Shown: positions 2,055-38,642, counted from the first letter of the stretch. The stretch is 64,000 nt of DNA from Candidatus Saccharimonadales bacterium (GCA_041906505.1 JAYRJB010000008.1:136053-200052); one strand, 5' to 3'. Numbers and translations are program-made. Notes: a model not told the origin generated them from the sequence alone.

Positions 2055-2648
2055 TTATTGCGCCCCGACAAGATCAAATCGATACAGACTTCGATTCTCA
2101 TACCAAAATCCAGTGCAGGTTTGAAGTGTTAGCCGTGGACTTCCTTGATAATTAAAGATCTCAGTTGTTTGAGGCTTAACGGTCTGAACGCTTATATATG
2201 AATAGGTGAATCTGTGGCCATTATCGGTGTAAACTATAGCTTGCTCGCCAGGCTTTATGGCTGGCAATTTGGAAAATACGTATTTGTTATTGTGTCCGTA
2301 AATAAATGTATTGCCAGCTGTATTGTTTGGCTTTTGGGTGTTTGTAGCAAACTGTGCCTTATCTTTACTAAGTGTCCATTCGAAGTTTGGTTGCCGATAG
2401 GTGCCATCGATGACTTGAAGGTCTATTCCTAATGATGGAATCACGATACGAACGGGACGTCCTTCAATGGCTGGCTCCGATGCAGAATTCTGCTTTGCAA
2501 ATTGGGTCTTGGTATTGTTTTCTTGCGTTACAGAAACTTGATCTTTTTCAACTAACCCTTTTGCAAGCTCCACAACAGAACCTTGACCAACCAATAGCCC
2601 GGCCGCTATAAACAGTACACCGATACTCAGATTGAATCTAATATTCAT
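2055..2648 (-). CDS. sortase family transpeptidase
   Basis: N-terminal TM anchor, catalytic His context IYGHN, TLQTCTG (TLxTC) active-site Cys motif and a downstream conserved Arg. I prefer the ATG at 2648, which follows GAGGTGGA at 7 nt, over the ORF-track start at 2690. Confidence 0.8.
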   Translation of the reverse strand: MNIRFNLSIGVLFIAAGLLVGQGSVVELAKGLVEKDQVSVTQENNTKTQFAKQNSASEPAIEGRPVRIVIPSLGIDLQVIDGTYRQPNFEWTLSKDKAQFATNTQKPNNTAGNTFIYGHNNKYVFSKLPAIKPGEQAIVYTDNGHRFTYSYISVQTVKPQTTEIFNYQGSPRLTLQTCTGFWYENRSLYRFDLVGAQ

Positions 2649-2745
2649 AAATATCCACCTCGCCAAAGACGTTAAAAAGAGGACGAACACTTAAATTTTC
2701 ATTAAATGCTCACCCTCTTTAGCTGATGTGTTTAGTTTCTTATCT

Positions 2746-2934
2746 CTAAGCCTTAAATATTTTCTTTGCAAGAAATCTTGCAGCTGTAGAAACAATCACT
2801 AATCCACCTACTGCGATGAGTAGAACAGAAAGGACCGTCAAGGCAATGCTTCCACCCGTGTTGGGAAGAATGAGCACGCCTGCTGAAGTACTTGCCACTG
2901 GCACAAAACCTGCACCACGTCCGCCTTCGTACAT
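2746..2934 (-). CDS. 62-aa mini-protein consisting almost only of an LPXTG cell-wall sorting signal
   Basis: Translation MYEGGRGAGFVPVASTSAGVLI-LPNTG-GSIALTVLSVLLIAVGGLVIVSTAA-RFLAKKIFKA is LPNTG plus a hydrophobic span plus a basic tail. A strong SD (GAGGAG, 5 nt spacer) precedes the ATG. An in-frame stop lies 6 codons upstream, so it cannot be longer. Confidence 0.6.
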   Translation of the reverse strand: MYEGGRGAGFVPVASTSAGVLILPNTGGSIALTVLSVLLIAVGGLVIVSTAARFLAKKIFKA

Positions 2935-3193
2935 ATTAACTCCTCTGTTACCTTAAAGATAAAAAGAGAGGCCCCGGGTTAGACCCGAAGTACCCTCTCT
3001 TAAAATCTATCAGTAGCAAATATACACTAATCATGTACGTTTGTAAAGTATATTTTATACTATTAACGCTTGAGCTTGGATTCTATTAGATGACCAACAT
3101 TAAGCACAAGCAATTTTTATTCACTCTAAAATATGCTAGTCTATTATTCAAATAGATTGTATAGATAATTTATAAGGAGTTCCAAAGAAGCTT

Positions 3194-4921
3194 ATGTCGT
3201 TAATGAGAATGCTAAACACTTGGCAAAAACACACTGTGATTGTTGTGGGTGCTGTTATAGCTATGAGCATACTATGTTACAGCCCTAAGGCTGAGGCGGC
3301 GTCAACAAGCCTTAGTGCGCAAGGGAAGGTGAGTTTTACCTTTGACGACGGTTATAAAAGCGCGCTCACAAAGGCTGCACCCACTCTAAACGAGAGCGGC
3401 ATTAGCGGCACAAGCTATGTGACTACCAACTTTATTGGCAGTTCGGCAGAATACATGACGTGGGCAGATGTAGCGCAACTTTCTACTACATATGGCTGGG
3501 AAATTGGCGGGCATAGCGTAACGCATCCACTATCAACACAGATTACGCCCCAACAAATTGAGCTTGAAGCTGCAAACTGCAAGCAGACTCTTATTCAGCA
3601 TGGCTTTACACCGACCAGCTATGCAACGCCGTTTGGTGACTACAACGGCCAGGTTATTGAGGCAATCGCTCGACATTACACCTCTCATAGGCCTTTTCAT
3701 GACAAGGGTTACAATGTCTGGCCCTATTCAGACTATCTACTACAAGTTCAACAGGTGCAGTCTGGCGTTAGTGTCCAAACTGTAAAGAGTTACGTTGATT
3801 CAGCAAAGCAAAATAACACATGGCTCATCTTGGTATTCCATGACATAAAAGATGTACCAAGTTCTGACCCACAAGATTATGAATACAGCACCAATGATCT
3901 AAGATCCATAGCGCAGTATGTGAAGTCACTCAATATGCCCACCCCGAATGTGACCGCTGGACTTGTAAATAACGACACAAACTTGCTACCAAATTCGACC
4001 TTTAATCAAGGACAAGCCGGGTGGACGACTGACGCGCCAAGCAACGTAAGTGTTAATACGCAGTCAAAGGGAAGCTCACCAGACGCGACGAACAGCTTGG
4101 CTGTTACCTCAACAACACAGAATATTCATATCCACTCTGATCAAGTGTCGGTAAAGCCAACCGAAACCTACGTTCTGAAGGGGTTTTTAAACGCGAGCAC
4201 TATCCAGGGTGGAGAAGTTGCGTTCTATATTGATGAGTACAATCTAAGTGGTTCTTGGATATCCGGCATATATCTGGGCGCAGTAACAAACGACTACACA
4301 AAAAGCCTCAATGTCGCATACAAGCCAAGTAGTGTTGGCGTATATACCTCAAGCCTTCAAGTGATTATTACCGCAAATTCAAATGCGAAACTGTACATTG
4401 ATAACGTAAGGTGGTTTTCGACGTCAGCCAACTCACCGACACCACCGCCAGCACCACCGGCACCAAGTCCAAATCTTTTACCAAACGCATCGTTCGACGC
4501 CGGAATCACGCAAGGTTGGACTACAGACTCAGCTACCAACGTAGTACTTGATCAGCTAAACAACGGTGGCACTACAAAGCAAAACTCCATCAAGCTGACT
4601 TCATCAACAACGAAGAATGTTCACCTACTCTCGCCAAAGGTTACTGTAGACGCCACAAAAACATACAACTTTAAGGCATACACGAACGTAAAAACCCGTA
4701 CCAGTGGGGCCTTAGCGTTTTACGTTGATGAATATGATGCTTTCGGAAACTGGATTTCTGGAAAGTACATCTATGAGAAAAGAAACAAAGGGGTACAGAC
4801 CATCAGTTTTGCCTACAAACCGACCTCCTCAAACGTAAAGAACGCGAGTATTCAAGTAATAGTTACGAAGGGATCTGGCATTACTGCGTATCTAGACGAC
4901 GCGCACTTTGCTGCTGCTTAA
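3194..4921 (+). CDS. secreted/anchored polysaccharide deacetylase (NodB domain) with two C-terminal CBM4_9-like carbohydrate-binding repeats
   Basis: N-terminal signal/TM. NodB motifs FTFDDGY and GGHSVTHP. Two homologous ~140-aa modules (NLLPNSTFNQGQAGWTTD... and NLLPNASFDAGITQGWTTD...) are separated by the Pro-rich linker SPTPPPAPPAPSP. Confidence 0.8.
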   Translation: MSLMRMLNTWQKHTVIVVGAVIAMSILCYSPKAEAASTSLSAQGKVSFTFDDGYKSALTKAAPTLNESGISGTSYVTTNFIGSSAEYMTWADVAQLSTTYGWEIGGHSVTHPLSTQITPQQIELEAANCKQTLIQHGFTPTSYATPFGDYNGQVIEAIARHYTSHRPFHDKGYNVWPYSDYLLQVQQVQSGVSVQTVKSYVDSAKQNNTWLILVFHDIKDVPSSDPQDYEYSTNDLRSIAQYVKSLNMPTPNVTAGLVNNDTNLLPNSTFNQGQAGWTTDAPSNVSVNTQSKGSSPDATNSLAVTSTTQNIHIHSDQVSVKPTETYVLKGFLNASTIQGGEVAFYIDEYNLSGSWISGIYLGAVTNDYTKSLNVAYKPSSVGVYTSSLQVIITANSNAKLYIDNVRWFSTSANSPTPPPAPPAPSPNLLPNASFDAGITQGWTTDSATNVVLDQLNNGGTTKQNSIKLTSSTTKNVHLLSPKVTVDATKTYNFKAYTNVKTRTSGALAFYVDEYDAFGNWISGKYIYEKRNKGVQTISFAYKPTSSNVKNASIQVIVTKGSGITAYLDDAHFAAA

Positions 4922-6183: not shown

Positions 6184-7365
6184 ATGTCGTTGCCACTTGC
6201 AGAAAGAATGCGCCCCCAAAGCCTCAAGGAGTTTGTTGGACAGACACACCTCACCGGCAAGGGACAGATTGTGCGGGAAATAATAAAAAGCAAGCAACCC
6301 GTAAGTCTCATCCTATGGGGTCCTCCTGGCAGCGGCAAGACAACCCTTGCTCGAATAATCGCCCAAGAAACAAAAACCGATTTTGTCGAACTTAGTGCAG
6401 TTACGTCCGGCAAAGCAGACGTTTCGAAGGTAATTGAGCACGCCAAACAGAACCTGCGCTTGCAGCAGAGAACCACTCTGTTTGTAGATGAAATCCATAG
6501 GTTTAACAAAGCGCAGCAGGACGCCTTTTTACCACACGTCGAAAATGGAACAATAATTCTTATCGGTGCGACCACAGAAAACCCAAGCTTTGAGGTGATC
6601 AATCCGCTTCTCAGTCGAAGTAAGGTGCTTGTTTTGGAGCCCTTAGGTAAAAAAGAGATAGTTAAAATACTCAATCAAGCAGCCAAACACTTAAGTATTT
6701 CCCCGGCTATTTTCCCCAAAGACAGTATGGAATACCTGGCCGAATTAGCAAGTGGCGATGCGCGGGTGGCCCTAGGGAACCTAGAGCTTGCTTTGACACT
6801 CGACTCTACCTCGTTATCCAAGAAAAAAATAGAGGCCGCAGCCCAAAAGAAACTACCTAGCTACGACAAAAAGGGCGAACACCACTATAACGTGATAAGC
6901 GCCTTTATTAAATCTTTGCGTGGAAGCGACGCAAATGCAGCGCTCTACTATCTTGCCAGAATGCTGCAGGCCGGAGAAGACCCAAAGTTTGTCGCAAGAC
7001 GAATGGTAGTCTTTGCCAGCGAAGATATTGGACTCGAGGCTTCGGCAGCGTTAAATGTTGTTGTGTCGACATTTTTGGCTGTCGAGAGGATAGGAATGCC
7101 CGAATGCGAATATAATCTTTACCACTGCGCGACCGTATTGGCAAAATGCAAAAAGTCACGTGTGGTAACAGACGCCATGAATAAGGCAAAAAAAGCCGCC
7201 TCCGAAAACCCAGATACAGCTGTGCCACTTCATCTAAGAAACTCCCCAACCCAGCTAATGAAAAACCTTGGCTACAGCCAAGGGACAAAGTGGGAAGCCG
7301 GATTTGTGCATGAAAAAGGTTTTTTGCCATCCGAACTTAAGAACTTAGACTTGTTTTCGAAGTAG
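6184..7365 (+). CDS. rarA: replication-associated recombination protein A (AAA+ ATPase RarA/MgsA)
   Basis: PLAERMRPQSLKEFVGQ N-terminus, Walker A GPPGSGKTT, Walker B LFVDEIHRF and a MgsA C-terminal helical domain. The start could also be 6145 or 6175. ATG 6184 lies 7 nt after a TATAAT (6171-6176). Confidence 0.9.
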   Translation: MSLPLAERMRPQSLKEFVGQTHLTGKGQIVREIIKSKQPVSLILWGPPGSGKTTLARIIAQETKTDFVELSAVTSGKADVSKVIEHAKQNLRLQQRTTLFVDEIHRFNKAQQDAFLPHVENGTIILIGATTENPSFEVINPLLSRSKVLVLEPLGKKEIVKILNQAAKHLSISPAIFPKDSMEYLAELASGDARVALGNLELALTLDSTSLSKKKIEAAAQKKLPSYDKKGEHHYNVISAFIKSLRGSDANAALYYLARMLQAGEDPKFVARRMVVFASEDIGLEASAALNVVVSTFLAVERIGMPECEYNLYHCATVLAKCKKSRVVTDAMNKAKKAASENPDTAVPLHLRNSPTQLMKNLGYSQGTKWEAGFVHEKGFLPSELKNLDLFSK

Positions 7366-7372
7366 CGCAAAA

Positions 7373-8209
7373 TTACTTCAGCTGAGAACGTACAAACCAG
7401 AAGTAAAATGACTCGGGAAGTAGTTTTTTGAGCAATATGAGAGATAAGGCCGGCTTTGCCACAGGATAGCGAAGTTTATTTTTGCCATCCGTACTGGCTT
7501 GATATACCTTTTCTGCAACCACAATCGGGCTGGTAGCAGATTTGTATGACTTATGAAAGTTGCTGATAACAGTTTTTTCGTATTGGTCATAGTCCTTTAG
7601 GCCAGGTTTAGAAAATCTCACCTCGGATCTGCCAATAAATTCCGTTTTGATAGTTCCTGGCTCAATTAGTTTTACACGAATGCCAAATGGTCGCAGCTCG
7701 TACGCAAGAGATTCGCTAAAACCCTCTATAGCCCATTTCGTGGCGTGGTACACACTATATAGAGGGAAGGTGATTCGGCCGCCCATTGAAGAGATGTTGA
7801 TTATTACTCCGCTTTCTTGCTTTCGAAAAACGGGTACAATCTCTCTGGTAACGTCCATAAGCCCAAACACGTTTACGTCAAACTGAGCCTTCACTTGACT
7901 AGGAGTTGACGCTTCAAACGCCCCAAGCGTTCCATATCCAGCGTTATTCACAACCACGTCAATTGATGTATATTTCTTAAGTGTTTTCTCGATCACATCA
8001 CGAATTGAATCTTGCTTGATAACATCGAGCTTCTCGCAAGAAATATTAGAGTATGCCCGAAACTCCTCGAGCTTTTTACCACTTCTTGACGTTGCAACAA
8101 CATTCCAGCCGTGATATGCAAAATATAGGGTCGTTGCTTTGCCGATGCCCGAAGAAGCGCCAGTAATAATAACTGTCTTACTCACGGACTTCGTGCTTTT
8201 TGAGCTCAT
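7373..8209 (-). CDS. SDR family NAD(P)-dependent oxidoreductase
   Basis: TGASSGIGKA cofactor motif, NNAG, and catalytic YHATKWA (YxxxK). Confidence 0.9.
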   Translation of the reverse strand: MSSKSTKSVSKTVIITGASSGIGKATTLYFAYHGWNVVATSRSGKKLEEFRAYSNISCEKLDVIKQDSIRDVIEKTLKKYTSIDVVVNNAGYGTLGAFEASTPSQVKAQFDVNVFGLMDVTREIVPVFRKQESGVIINISSMGGRITFPLYSVYHATKWAIEGFSESLAYELRPFGIRVKLIEPGTIKTEFIGRSEVRFSKPGLKDYDQYEKTVISNFHKSYKSATSPIVVAEKVYQASTDGKNKLRYPVAKPALSLILLKKLLPESFYFWFVRSQLK

Positions 8210-8261
8210 TGTTGCTAATTATAGCGCAAAAGTAAGACAGCAGACGATGCCTTAAGAATCC

Positions 8262-8789
8262 TCACATGTGATCTTTTACGACCTGCAAACTCTCTAGCGT
8301 ATCTAGCACATCGAGTATTTGTTGGTCGATATCCGTATCAGAACTACTCCCATCCTCAAAAGCCTTAGGTTCATACATTGAAAGGCTAGACCAATAGTGC
8401 GAAGAGCCGCTTTCTTCGAGTGACCCGGGATTAAACGACTCAATATTAACACTAACCACCTTAAGGCCGTCTCCGTCAAACCCATCTTCACGAATGCCGT
8501 GCGTGTCGTACGACCCATAGTTTATTCGCACAACACCAAGATTCTGTGGCGTAAGATCAAAGCGCCAACCACGCAAACTATCACCGCTTAGGCTGTGGTC
8601 ACAGAGCTCTCTAGCCATCTTATAGGCCTGTCCAAAAGCAGATTTATAAACCTCCAATTTAGACTCAACATCTAAGGAGTTAACTATCTCGCTCTTTCTT
8701 CTCACGTCTTCTGAGTAGTAGCCGCCCGATGTATCCTGCTCAACAAGTTTTTGGTACTCAAAACAGGTTCTGATTGCTTTTTCGTCCAT
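8262..8789 (-). CDS. hypothetical acidic cytoplasmic protein
   Basis: Long ORF with no competing frame. No motif recognised. Confidence 0.45.
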   Translation of the reverse strand: MDEKAIRTCFEYQKLVEQDTSGGYYSEDVRRKSEIVNSLDVESKLEVYKSAFGQAYKMARELCDHSLSGDSLRGWRFDLTPQNLGVVRINYGSYDTHGIREDGFDGDGLKVVSVNIESFNPGSLEESGSSHYWSSLSMYEPKAFEDGSSSDTDIDQQILDVLDTLESLQVVKDHM

Positions 8790-37436: not shown

Positions 37437-37499
37437 AGTGATATCTATTATAGCACATATTGTAATTTTTAGCAATATCCTCCATACTTGATAACTGTT

Positions 37500-37955
37500 A
37501 TGCCAAAGAAACCGGCGCGAACCACCACACGAATCCAAAACAAGCGAGCCATGTTTGACTACGAACTTAGTGACGACTATATGGCTGGTTTGGTTTTAAC
37601 TGGGGCAGAAACAAAGGCGCTACGTCTTGGACATGGCCACCTAAAAGGTGCCTATGTAACCGTTAAAGGCGATGAACTTTACCTTCTTAATGCCACAATT
37701 ACTGGATTCAGCGGCGTAAAACTTACCGAATCAGAGCAGACTAGAAGCCGAAAGCTTCTACTAAAAAAGAGAGAGATCAAAACTTTACTTGAAGCCAAAA
37801 AACAAGGTAAATCAATCATACCGACCGAGCTTCTTACCAATGGGCGCTACATAAAGCTTCGCATAGGCGTAGGAGTAGGCCGAAAGCAGCACGATAAACG
37901 CCAAGTTATCAAAAAACGCGACACCAACCGCGACATTGCCCGCACATTGCGGTAG
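37500..37955 (+). CDS. smpB: SsrA-binding protein SmpB
   Basis: IQNKRAMFDYEL...GLVLTGAETKALR...AYV and a basic C-terminal tail. ATG at 37500 (the track start 37488 is TTG). Confidence 0.9.
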   Translation: MPKKPARTTTRIQNKRAMFDYELSDDYMAGLVLTGAETKALRLGHGHLKGAYVTVKGDELYLLNATITGFSGVKLTESEQTRSRKLLLKKREIKTLLEAKKQGKSIIPTELLTNGRYIKLRIGVGVGRKQHDKRQVIKKRDTNRDIARTLR

Positions 37956-37963
37956 ATCACGTA

Positions 37964-38308
37964 TTGTTCTACCGTAAGAGTATGGCAGACAAACGAAAGT
38001 ATAGTGATCGTAGAGAATATTTGATTCGAGCAGTGTCTAAGCGCAGGCGCAATCTCAAAATAAAAGCGGTCAAGCTACTAGGAGGTGTATGTGTACTGTG
38101 CGGATATGATAAGCATTCCGGCGTACTCGATTTTCACCACATAGACCCAAAGCTTAAGTCGTTCGGTCTCGGTAGCGGGGGATTCTCAAGGTCATGGAAG
38201 TCTATAGAAGCAGAATCAAAAAAGTGCGTCCTAGTATGCGCAAATTGTCACCGCGAGATCGAACTTGGACTAACAACTGAGGATTTAACCCAATATTTAC
38301 ATCCCTAG
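37964..38308 (+). CDS. HNH endonuclease domain protein
   Basis: CVLCGY...LDFHHIDP...KCVLVCANCHREIE gives two Cys pairs plus HNH His/Asn-type residues. Confidence 0.7.
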   Translation: MFYRKSMADKRKYSDRREYLIRAVSKRRRNLKIKAVKLLGGVCVLCGYDKHSGVLDFHHIDPKLKSFGLGSGGFSRSWKSIEAESKKCVLVCANCHREIELGLTTEDLTQYLHP

Positions 38309-38339: not shown

Positions 38340-38642
38340 TCCGGGGTAGCTCAGCGGTAGAGCGGGTGGCTGTCAAAGGCAGCCTGTCTGGGCAACCAGT
38401 CAGTGAAAACAGGGTGAATTGCAGAAACCCTAAGGCAAACACGCTAAGGCAATCTGCAGCCAAGCCAAGCTAGAGGCAACGACGCTTGGAAGGTTCAGAG
38501 ACTAGAAGGTGAGACCTCAGCAATAATCCTTCAAATGAGCGCCCTGCATCCCACGCGGATGATGAAATAGTCCACGCCATTACGAAAGTATGGAGATCGT
38601 GTAACCACTAGGTCGAAGGTTCGAATCCTTTCCCCGGAGCCA
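38340..38642 (+). tRNA. tRNA-Asn (anticodon GUU) interrupted in the anticodon loop by a 228-nt group I-like intron; CCA encoded
   Basis: 5' exon 38340-38373 is TCCGGGG-TA-GCTC-AGCGGTA-GAGC-G-GGTGG-CTGT. 3' exon 38602-38642 is TAA-CCACT-AGGTC-GAAGG-TTCGAAT-CCTTT-CCCCGGA-G-CCA. Spliced product is a 75-nt cloverleaf with loop CUGUUAA. U1-A72 with G73 fits bacterial tRNA-Asn. Confidence 0.8.
38374..38601 (+). ncRNA. group I intron (IC3-like core), no ORF
   Basis: P1: exon GGCUGU (38368-38373) pairs with GCAGCC (38379-38384), with a U.G wobble at the 5' splice site. P2 hairpin is CUGG-GCAA-CCAG (38388-38399). Core GGUUCAGAGACUAGA lies at 38492-38506, with P7 GACUA (38500-38504) pairing to UAGUC (38568-38572). 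The intron ends in G38601. Confidence 0.75.

Follow-up and report, generated by a model that had tools for sequence, protein, structure and literature searches.

What is a protein that consists of little more than a cell-wall sorting signal doing in front of a sortase gene? The question is raised by a 64,000-nucleotide stretch of DNA from a Candidatus Saccharimonadales bacterium (GCA_041906505.1, JAYRJB010000008.1:136053-200052), here called the window. On its minus strand, positions 2746–2934 encode a 62-residue product that reads MYEGGRGAGFVPVASTSAGVLI-LPNTG-GSIALTVLSVLLIAVGGLVIVSTAA-RFLAKKIFKA, that is, a 22-residue N-tail rich in G, A, S, T and V, the LPNTG motif (residues 23–27, nucleotides 2854–2868), a hydrophobic transmembrane (TM) span of about 25 residues and a basic tail. 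A Shine–Dalgarno (SD) sequence, AGAGGAG, can be read at 2940–2946 (minus strand), 5 nt before the ATG, and an in-frame TAA at 2953–2955 lies upstream of that ATG with six sense codons between them, so the protein cannot be longer. Direct reading bears out the ORF as the first-pass annotation had described it (LPNTG, hydrophobic span, basic tail, strong SD, upstream stop), and its statement that this is the sole LPXTG protein in the window also holds: a six-frame motif scan of the 64 kb found no LPXTG-type sorting signal other than that of the mini-ORF. Is this then an ordinary LPXTG protein? Like the canonical ones (TIGR01167/PF00746), it has the LPXTG motif, the hydrophobic span and the basic tail and, as in their systems, an adjacent membrane-anchored sortase with a His–Cys–Arg triad. 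Unlike them, it has neither a signal peptide nor a passenger domain, it is only about 57–62 residues long, and its scores against the sorting-signal HMMs stay under the curated cut-offs (11.8 vs 15.9 bits for TIGR01167; 14.7 vs 20 bits for PF00746). The signal peptide expected of LPXTG substrates is missing on three counts: the upstream stop, the short reading frames of the relatives and their conserved SD and Met-Tyr start. To judge by its sequence, the system works like an LPXTG/sortase pair minus two of the usual features, the signal peptide and an HMM score above cut-off.

Is such a small ORF a gene at all? Eighty sortase loci were fetched from species-representative genomes, almost all of them MAGs of Candidatus Saccharibacteria/Saccharimonadales, as are the sortase homologues themselves. 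A motif scan followed by a profile HMM found the same kind of mini-ORF in 69 of the 80, directly upstream of the sortase in most loci and divergent in a few. A single-sequence word-index search with the 62-residue protein matched only its own 97%-identity cluster, and the relatives surfaced only through the collected sortase loci and the profile search. Stop-to-stop frames in the 69 loci measure 57–140 codons (median 68), which in no case is enough to accommodate a signal peptide together with a passenger domain. When 5.8 billion proteins were searched, the mini-ORF profile gave 108 matches of 50–94 residues, annotated as 'hypothetical' or, rarely, as 'LPXTG cell wall anchor domain-containing'. 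From 1.84 billion cluster representatives, an exhaustive scan by HMM recovered 279 mini-family matches at E <= 1e-3; the best 150 of these are nearly all 48–96 residues long and most align from residue 1, so the family is intrinsically short and not a domain of larger proteins. Among 35 pairs of equal-length mini-ORF orthologues, pN/pS lies between 0.04 and 0.5 and the nucleotide differences fall mostly on third codon positions (779, against 259 first and 153 second), which together indicate clear purifying selection on the protein. Conservation extends to the start, which reads Met-Tyr or M-[NTSA]-Y; nearly all related loci have an SD-like site of at least 4 nt ahead of it. On this comparative evidence, the mini-LPXTG ORF is a real conserved gene under purifying selection.

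Could the ORF nevertheless be a functionless relic of some larger LPXTG gene, or a leader peptide (uORF) that regulates the sortase? The N-tail does resemble the Gly/Ala-rich linker found in the 170–200-residue LPXTG proteins of some related loci (type C, below), and structured RNA flanks the mini-ORF on both sides. These points are outweighed by strong purifying selection across the whole ORF, by the 279 divergent cluster representatives, by an LPxT that is invariant and an SD and MY start that are conserved, and by the presence of a TM span and an LPXTG motif that a regulatory leader peptide does not need. A pseudogene, a remnant or a chance ORF was ruled out by pN/pS, third-position bias and family size, and we consider the remnant or leader explanation effectively refuted.

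What kind of enzyme sits next to this protein? The sortase gene (2055–2648, minus strand) encodes 197 residues with an N-terminal TM helix, a linker of about 25 residues and a catalytic barrel carrying H119, C178 and R186. It scores 73.6 bits against the Pfam Sortase model (PF04203; cut-off 26.6), and His119, Cys178 (in LQTC) and Arg186 are invariant in 32 sortase homologues. The AF2 model (pLDDT 86.6) is a confident beta-barrel preceded by a disordered linker of some 25 residues, and Foldseek matches it to solved sortases with a probability of 1.00. Its class is less obvious. The protein is about equally distant, at 16–25% identity, from solved sortases of classes A, C, D and E, with the closest PDB sequences at E ~1e-6, and it reaches no NCBIfam class cut-off: the best score is that of class D (46 vs 140 bits), those of E, F and GN are also far below, and the class A, B and C models gave no match to it at E up to 1. 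It is, on these scores, best named a member of an unclassified Saccharibacteria sortase clade. The most likely start codon, to go by the alignments, is the ATG at 2648, and the 197-residue form that results is on record at 100% identity (P0002). A GTG at 2690 was also considered and was ruled out against this ATG by the N-termini of the homologues, by the 197-residue record and by its position inside a terminator-like hairpin. With the ATG at 2648, the gap between the mini-gene and the sortase gene is 97 nt and not the 55 nt first reported.

The sortase is followed on the same strand by a second enzyme gene (789–2054, minus), whose ATG abuts the sortase stop codon. It encodes a 421-residue family 2 glycosyltransferase (GT2) with multiple TM helices, including C-terminal ones, and the motifs QRYRW and LTEDIG (the TED motif) can be read in the translation. 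The protein scores 117 bits against PF00535 and 56 bits against PF13632, matches BcsA over residues 51–356, the catalytic and TM core, and aligns over its full length with the poly-beta-1,6-GlcNAc synthase equivalog TIGR03937, at 163 vs a cut-off of 422 bits. Its motifs and matches identify it as a processive synthase, PgaC/IcaA-like below the equivalog level. On the other side of the mini-gene, divergently oriented at 3194–4921 (plus strand), lies the gene of a secreted CE4 polysaccharide deacetylase; the C-terminal part of the protein holds two repeat domains, which look carbohydrate-binding and have no family match.

How constant is this neighbourhood? In 72 of the 80 loci the sortase has a GT2 gene no further than 1.3 kb away, and wherever the contig permits evaluation, a locus with a mini-ORF has a GT2 gene beside the sortase (66 of 66), in three gene orders. 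A small ORF that is not conserved among relatives with the sortase–GT2 pair would have spoken against the first-pass annotation; mini-LPXTG ORFs conserved beside sortases are what the profile HMM found, in 69 of the 80 loci, with the GT2 in all 66 that could be evaluated. The loci can be sorted into four types. Type A, which is the arrangement of the window, has the order mini-ORF > sortase > GT2 with a CE4 deacetylase near. Type B has mini-ORF > sortase, a different and convergent GT2 and a CE4-Big_7 protein near. Type C has a secreted LPXTG protein of 170–200 residues > sortase > GT2, so that a longer protein, made of an NTGPGS-motif domain and a Gly/Ala/Pro-rich linker, takes the place of the mini-ORF. 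Type D has a divergent mini-ORF and GT2 > sortase > VAPTG protein > second sortase. Pfam and NCBIfam hold no family for the 170–270-residue LPXTG/VAPTG proteins of type C and D loci. Most loci of types A and B have a CE4 homologue, in one orientation or the other, no more than a few kb away; types C and D lack the deacetylase.

How is the mini-gene expressed relative to the two enzymes behind it? A sigma-70-like promoter can be read at 3019–3047 (minus strand; TTTACA, 17 nt, TATATT; 10 of 12 consensus positions), and in 20 loci a AATATACTTTACA-N17-TATAAT block can be aligned ahead of the mini-gene, irrespective of how the upstream gene is oriented. The predicted transcript starts about 10 nt before a 5' leader stem-loop at 2965–3000 (minus strand; AGAGAGG...CCTCTCT, with inner CTTCGGGT/ACCCGGGG and a U-run next). 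The first-pass annotation had pointed to this hairpin, and folding confirms that it is real: 8+8 bp and -25.7 kcal/mol in an 88-nt context, with z = -2.2. The placement some 10 nt downstream of a conserved promoter fits the idea, put forward at the same time, of a 5' stabiliser or an attenuator. In a close relative (L001) the stem is kept through pairing-preserving U-A/G-U changes. Other loci and clades differ in leader sequence and keep the arrangement, in which an AGAGAG arm on the 5' side pairs with a CUCUCU/UUCUC arm right before the SD. RNAalifold on eight loci pairs the 3' arm of the leader with the SD (GGAGG); further in, it predicts a hairpin that has three covarying pairs and whose conserved loop contains CACGTG. 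From these predicted folds, the leader is best described as a putative 5'-terminal stem-loop stabiliser, possibly an anti-anti-SD switch; Rfam gave nothing near any gathering score for either the leader or the intergenic region.

A second hairpin, absent from the first-pass annotation, occupies the gap between the mini-gene and the sortase. It is terminator-like (2665–2720, minus strand), with a 19-bp stem at 2676–2720 and a U-rich tail at 2665–2675; the stem has z = -3.1 and none of 200 shuffles folds as well. In 47 of 66 loci the mini-gene is followed by a T-tailed hairpin of -20 kcal/mol or lower, set against 1 of 65 controls in coding sequence and 0 of 66 shuffles. No promoter-like site was found in the window between this hairpin and the sortase, so read-through is probably the only route to expression of the sortase and the GT2. 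Taken together, the conserved promoter and the terminator-like hairpin imply that much more peptide than enzyme is made, which would be the classic layout where a structural product is abundant and an enzyme scarce. The description of the ORF as heading a sortase operon therefore stands in one respect, since the mini-gene does lie upstream of the sortase and GT2 genes on the same strand, and has to be qualified in another, as a terminator-like hairpin intervenes. This layout also sets the locus apart from canonical LPXTG systems: the mini-gene has its own promoter and terminator-like hairpin, there is the GT2 linkage, and the sortase fits none of the matched class models. Comparable too are sortase-assembled pilins (class C), where a subunit gene, here too in probable excess, stands beside a dedicated sortase, and class C sortases are among the nearest solved structures to that of the window. 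They differ in that the mini-protein has no Ig-like pilin domain and the window sortase is equally far from classes A, D and E. A pilin reading was ruled out: there is no conserved Lys (K occurs in 100 of 246 N-tails, at no fixed position), only 22 residues precede LPNTG, and there is no domain.

Where would the motif of such a protein end up? All 242 mini-family sequences compared (100%) keep the motif's L, P and T, and 88% keep its G; the x of LPxTG is N, A, F, H, D or Y. The motif extends upstream, with G at -4 (76%) and A at -2 (66%), and is followed downstream by G/N/S and then N. Positions in the TM segment are conserved as well (G +21 in 91%, A +14 in 72%, L +10 in 70%). At a median length of 19 residues, the N-tail is made up to about 70% of G, A, T, V or S, and in 194 of 246 sequences it has a Tyr within the first three residues. 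Its mean net charge is about +0.24, and that of the C-tail about +3.0. For the window protein, AF2 predicts a single long helix at residues 30–60 and an unstructured N-tail at low confidence. By the positive-inside rule, the charge distribution fits an N-out/C-in single-span topology, which would put LPNTG at the outer face of the membrane. Is there a precedent for getting there without a signal peptide? The Pf3 coat protein is a YidC-dependent, Sec-independent, N-out single-span protein. Proteins of this type are about 45–60 residues long and lack a signal peptide; a short N-tail of little charge, which is translocated, is followed by a single TM span and a basic C-tail. The mini-family has the same set of features (median N-tail of 19 residues at +0.24, one helix, C-tail at +3). 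The differences are that the two share no sequence relationship, that Pf3 is not processed by a transpeptidase and that for the mini-protein the insertion route is one that we infer.

The other way to present the motif outside would be a hairpin, in which the N-tail acts as a signal-anchor-like, N-in segment and LPNTGGN forms a tight outer loop. Cleavage would then leave a membrane-to-wall staple, with the N-terminal segment staying in the membrane and its C-terminus attached covalently to the wall. The N-tail is moderately hydrophobic (Kyte–Doolittle about 1.8 by a hand estimate), which leaves room for such a hairpin in members with longer tails; it is rich in V, A, L, I and G, many members have K/R near the N-terminus (K in 100 of 246), and AF2 offers a short low-confidence helix at residues 14–21. 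Against this, many N-tails have just 11–16 residues with Q, E or P among them (MYQPQVLGEQF, MYVLGESTNIPPV), too short for the bilayer. In the shortest members, whose tails of 11–13 residues contain Q, E or P and cannot span it, this argues against N-in insertion as the general topology. The mean charge of the N-tail, near zero vs +3 at the C-terminus, speaks the same way, and we think the hairpin very improbable.

How might the pieces with an N-out substrate work together? The model we favour, with moderate confidence, is that the mini-protein is a dedicated, Sec-independent, N-out substrate of the adjacent sortase, coupled to glycan synthesis. The mini-gene's own strong promoter would yield large amounts of a short mRNA that bears a 5' stem-loop and ends at a leaky terminator, and transcription of the sortase and the GT2 would come from read-through only. 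Having no signal peptide, the mini-protein would insert as a single-span N-out/C-in protein, its nearly uncharged short N-tail crossing the membrane, probably aided by YidC or spontaneously, as in the Pf3 coat protein, and its +4 C-tail remaining inside. GxAxLPNTGG would then be placed on the outer side of the membrane, in reach of the catalytic domain of the membrane-anchored sortase, which would cut T26|G27 (a candidate substrate peptide spanning this bond is GVLILPNTGGSI) and pass MYEGGRGAGFVPVASTSAGVLILPNT to an envelope amine. The transferred peptide would have 26 residues, those N-terminal to the T|G bond, rather than the roughly 27 first proposed. Its most likely acceptor would be a peptidoglycan precursor. 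Are the two proteins made for each other? The lack of any other LPXTG protein in the window suggests so, as does one MAG with a second sortase locus that has no mini-ORF and instead a VAPTG protein beside that sortase (L022, L035). Several points count against the substrate model. The sorting-signal HMM scores stay under cut-off, the sortase fits no characterised class, the moderate hydrophobicity of the N-tail leaves some probability to an N-in hairpin (below or above N-out in likelihood by member), and wall anchoring alone does not account for the GT2. To our knowledge, every characterised sortase substrate is Sec-exported and has a signal peptide and a passenger domain, and a few family members found by the HMM scan (L014, L048) carry LPNTH instead of LPNTG. 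The interpretation given in the first-pass annotation is nonetheless supported overall; the topology, the insertion route, the cleavage, the acceptor and the glycan link are what we infer.

Which half of a cleaved mini-protein would matter? The membrane-retained C-peptide (GGSIALTV...KKIFKA) could itself be the functional product, as a subunit or regulator of the GT2 or the sortase or as a signalling peptide, with LPNTG cleavage as a maturation or reporting step. The conserved positions of the TM segment (G +21, A +14, L +10) agree with this, and PNAG synthases do use small membrane partners such as IcaD and PgaD. In Streptococcus gordonii, a histidine kinase is reported to receive a signal from cleaved LPXTG C-peptides (as cited in PMC11502775). 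Several features of the loci point the other way. The promoter and terminator-like hairpin of the mini-gene imply a large excess of peptide, unlike a stoichiometric subunit, and the residues before LPXTG are conserved as much as the TM segment. Type C loci hold an ordinary secreted LPXTG protein of 170–200 residues at the same place, and among ORFs of at least 110 residues in three loci (L018, L060, L051) there was no histidine-kinase family match. We regard a functional C-peptide as quite unlikely, and the substrate model, in which the N-terminal peptide is the product, as the better guide to the locus.

Why, then, is a polysaccharide synthase always at hand? Simple wall anchoring of the peptide does not explain the invariable GT2 linkage. 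This linkage, often with a CE4 deacetylase in addition, suggests that the cell produces a peptide layer and a secreted glycan for joint use, and the combination of mini-peptide family, sortase and polysaccharide synthase points to an undescribed way of decorating the Saccharibacteria envelope. A rival to the substrate model, in which the peptide is no wall decoration by itself and which we put forward as a tentative and rather doubtful idea, is that the mini-peptide is a ribosomally made adapter by which the sortase couples the synthase-made polysaccharide to the envelope, as peptide–glycan–wall or as a peptide-capped glycan. The peptide would be the covalent link between the two, and this could come about in two ways. 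The sortase could join LPNT to a free amine of the deacetylated glycan, or the glycan could be carried on the N-tail (at Tyr2/Gly3 or at Ser/Thr) and the sortase would then fix the glycopeptide to peptidoglycan. Such a coupling would agree with the GT2 beside the sortase in every evaluable mini-ORF locus across gene orders, with the abutting sortase stop and GT2 start codons, with the CE4 deacetylase near in type A and B loci, and with an N-terminus conserved as M-Y-G (Y in the first three residues in 194 of 246) in a tail rich in G, A, T, S and V. Several points weigh against it. Since type C and D loci have no deacetylase, a GlcN amine cannot be the universal acceptor, and we know of no sortase that uses a glycan amine in vivo. 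Some N-tails have no Ser and no Thr, MYQPQVLGEQF for example, and the GT2 has its active site in the cytoplasm, on the opposite side of the membrane from the predicted position of the N-tail.

Do known systems couple glycans and sortases in a comparable manner? In Actinomyces oris, the glycosylated LAXTG protein GspA is anchored by the housekeeping sortase SrtA, with glycosylation tied to wall anchoring in the GspA–LcpA–SrtA pathway (PMC6381275). This is a precedent for the adapter idea in that GspA, a sortase substrate, is mainly a glycan carrier (PMC6381275). The pathway differs in that GspA is secreted with a signal peptide and glycosylated by an LCP phosphotransferase rather than by a processive GT2; for the mini-peptide, glycosylation is hypothetical. 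An analogy can also be drawn with the sorting of PEP-CTERM proteins by exosortase (EpsH), which is linked to exopolysaccharide: there too a motif, a TM span and a basic cluster are joined, the enzyme is tied to polysaccharide loci and the cargo is rich in Ser, Thr and Asn (PMC1569441). The likeness does not go further, as the multi-TM exosortase and the PEP motif are unrelated to the sortase and LPXTG, the bacteria have an outer membrane and the substrates have signal peptides. A literature search for signal-peptide-less mini-LPXTG proteins, or for a sortase–GT2 module in Saccharibacteria, found no description.

Why would such a small system matter? A conserved family, by its expression signals an abundant one, that consists of a sorting signal and some 20 further residues would show that a tail-anchored microprotein can feed a sortase, and that the key product of a sortase can be a short peptide, or its attachment, rather than a folded domain. 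The pairing with GT2 suggests a new link between sortase chemistry and exopolysaccharide. Saccharibacteria belong to the CPR/Patescibacteria; their few cultivated members are epibionts, and the biology of their envelope and attachment is poorly understood. If the adapter reading were true, it would describe a sortase-dependent glycopolymer-anchoring pathway, the first natural class of sortase substrates that need no signal peptide to get to the enzyme, and a main surface layer in bacteria that live attached to other cells. The locus is of interest to sortase and CPR envelope biology alike. Reconstitution should be feasible for a system of this size, which comprises a single peptide, a single enzyme and a single synthase and might also supply a new minimal sortase tag together with its enzyme.

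How the short form arose can be approached through the type C loci. The N-tail of the mini-protein resembles the linker before LPXTG in the type C proteins, and on this likeness the mini form may be a reduced version of them. A crude neighbour-joining tree of the sortase cores places type C and most of type B apart from type A.

The leader of the mini-gene, the 62-aa LPNTG ORF upstream of the sortase, has a layout that is conserved among loci. This 5' UTR (window 2935-3047, minus strand; the leaders named alongside it belong to L011, L012, L030, L046, L053, L058, L061 and L080, sortase loci from related genomes) runs from the promoter through a 5' AGAGAG arm and an inner hairpin to a CUCUCU/UUCUC arm, the last of which is complementary to the Shine-Dalgarno site. 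In one clade, three base pairs of the inner hairpin covary, and its loop, CACACGTGA(A/G)C, is conserved. Rfam has no entry for the element, which may serve as a switch for translation or as a binding site for a protein.

The sorting signal itself varies. LPNTH(G) replaces LPNTG in some mini-ORFs (L014 5737-5922 and L048 5696-5899, and also the database protein P0305), and therefore Gly after the scissile Thr is not universal in the mini-ORF family. Secreted LPXTG proteins of 170-200 aa occupy the mini-ORF position in a sister group of loci (L018 5252-5812, L059 5381-5971, L065 3800-4378, L071 5274-5783 and L077 5281-5814). The motif I(T/S)NTGPGS, a pair of Cys residues and Asn/Ser/Gly-rich repeats mark the unannotated N-terminal domain that they have in common; Pfam and NCBIfam gave no match. 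Type D loci, in which a divergent mini-ORF is followed by GT2 and sortase genes, encode a protein of 264-270 aa with a VAPTG-type sorting signal and a weak match to NCBIfam GVDTG_CTERM. In L051 this protein (6663-7475) precedes a second sortase (7497-8456), the longer one at 319 aa. L035 and L022 come from the same MAG; L035 is its second sortase locus, which has no mini-ORF and in which this VAPTG protein (2164-2958) adjoins the sortase.

Divergent from the mini-gene in the window lies a CE4 deacetylase gene (3194-4921, plus strand), whose product ends in two repeats of about 150 aa each (NLLPN.(S/A)F..G..GWTTD...). These look like carbohydrate-binding modules; no Pfam match was above threshold, the sole match being a weak one to a phage head spike fiber domain.

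Elsewhere in the window, a group I intron (Rfam RF00028, 71.8 bits) splits a tRNA gene (38340-38642, plus strand) within the anticodon loop. Neither ARAGORN nor the Rfam tRNA model calls a tRNA in the unspliced DNA; once the intron is removed in silico, the precise position of the splice site decides whether the sequence reads as tRNA-Thr(UGU) or as tRNA-Asn(GUU). The two ORFs directly upstream, at 37488-37955 and 37964-38308, comprise an HNH-like ORF, possibly a homing endonuclease, and an smpB-like gene.
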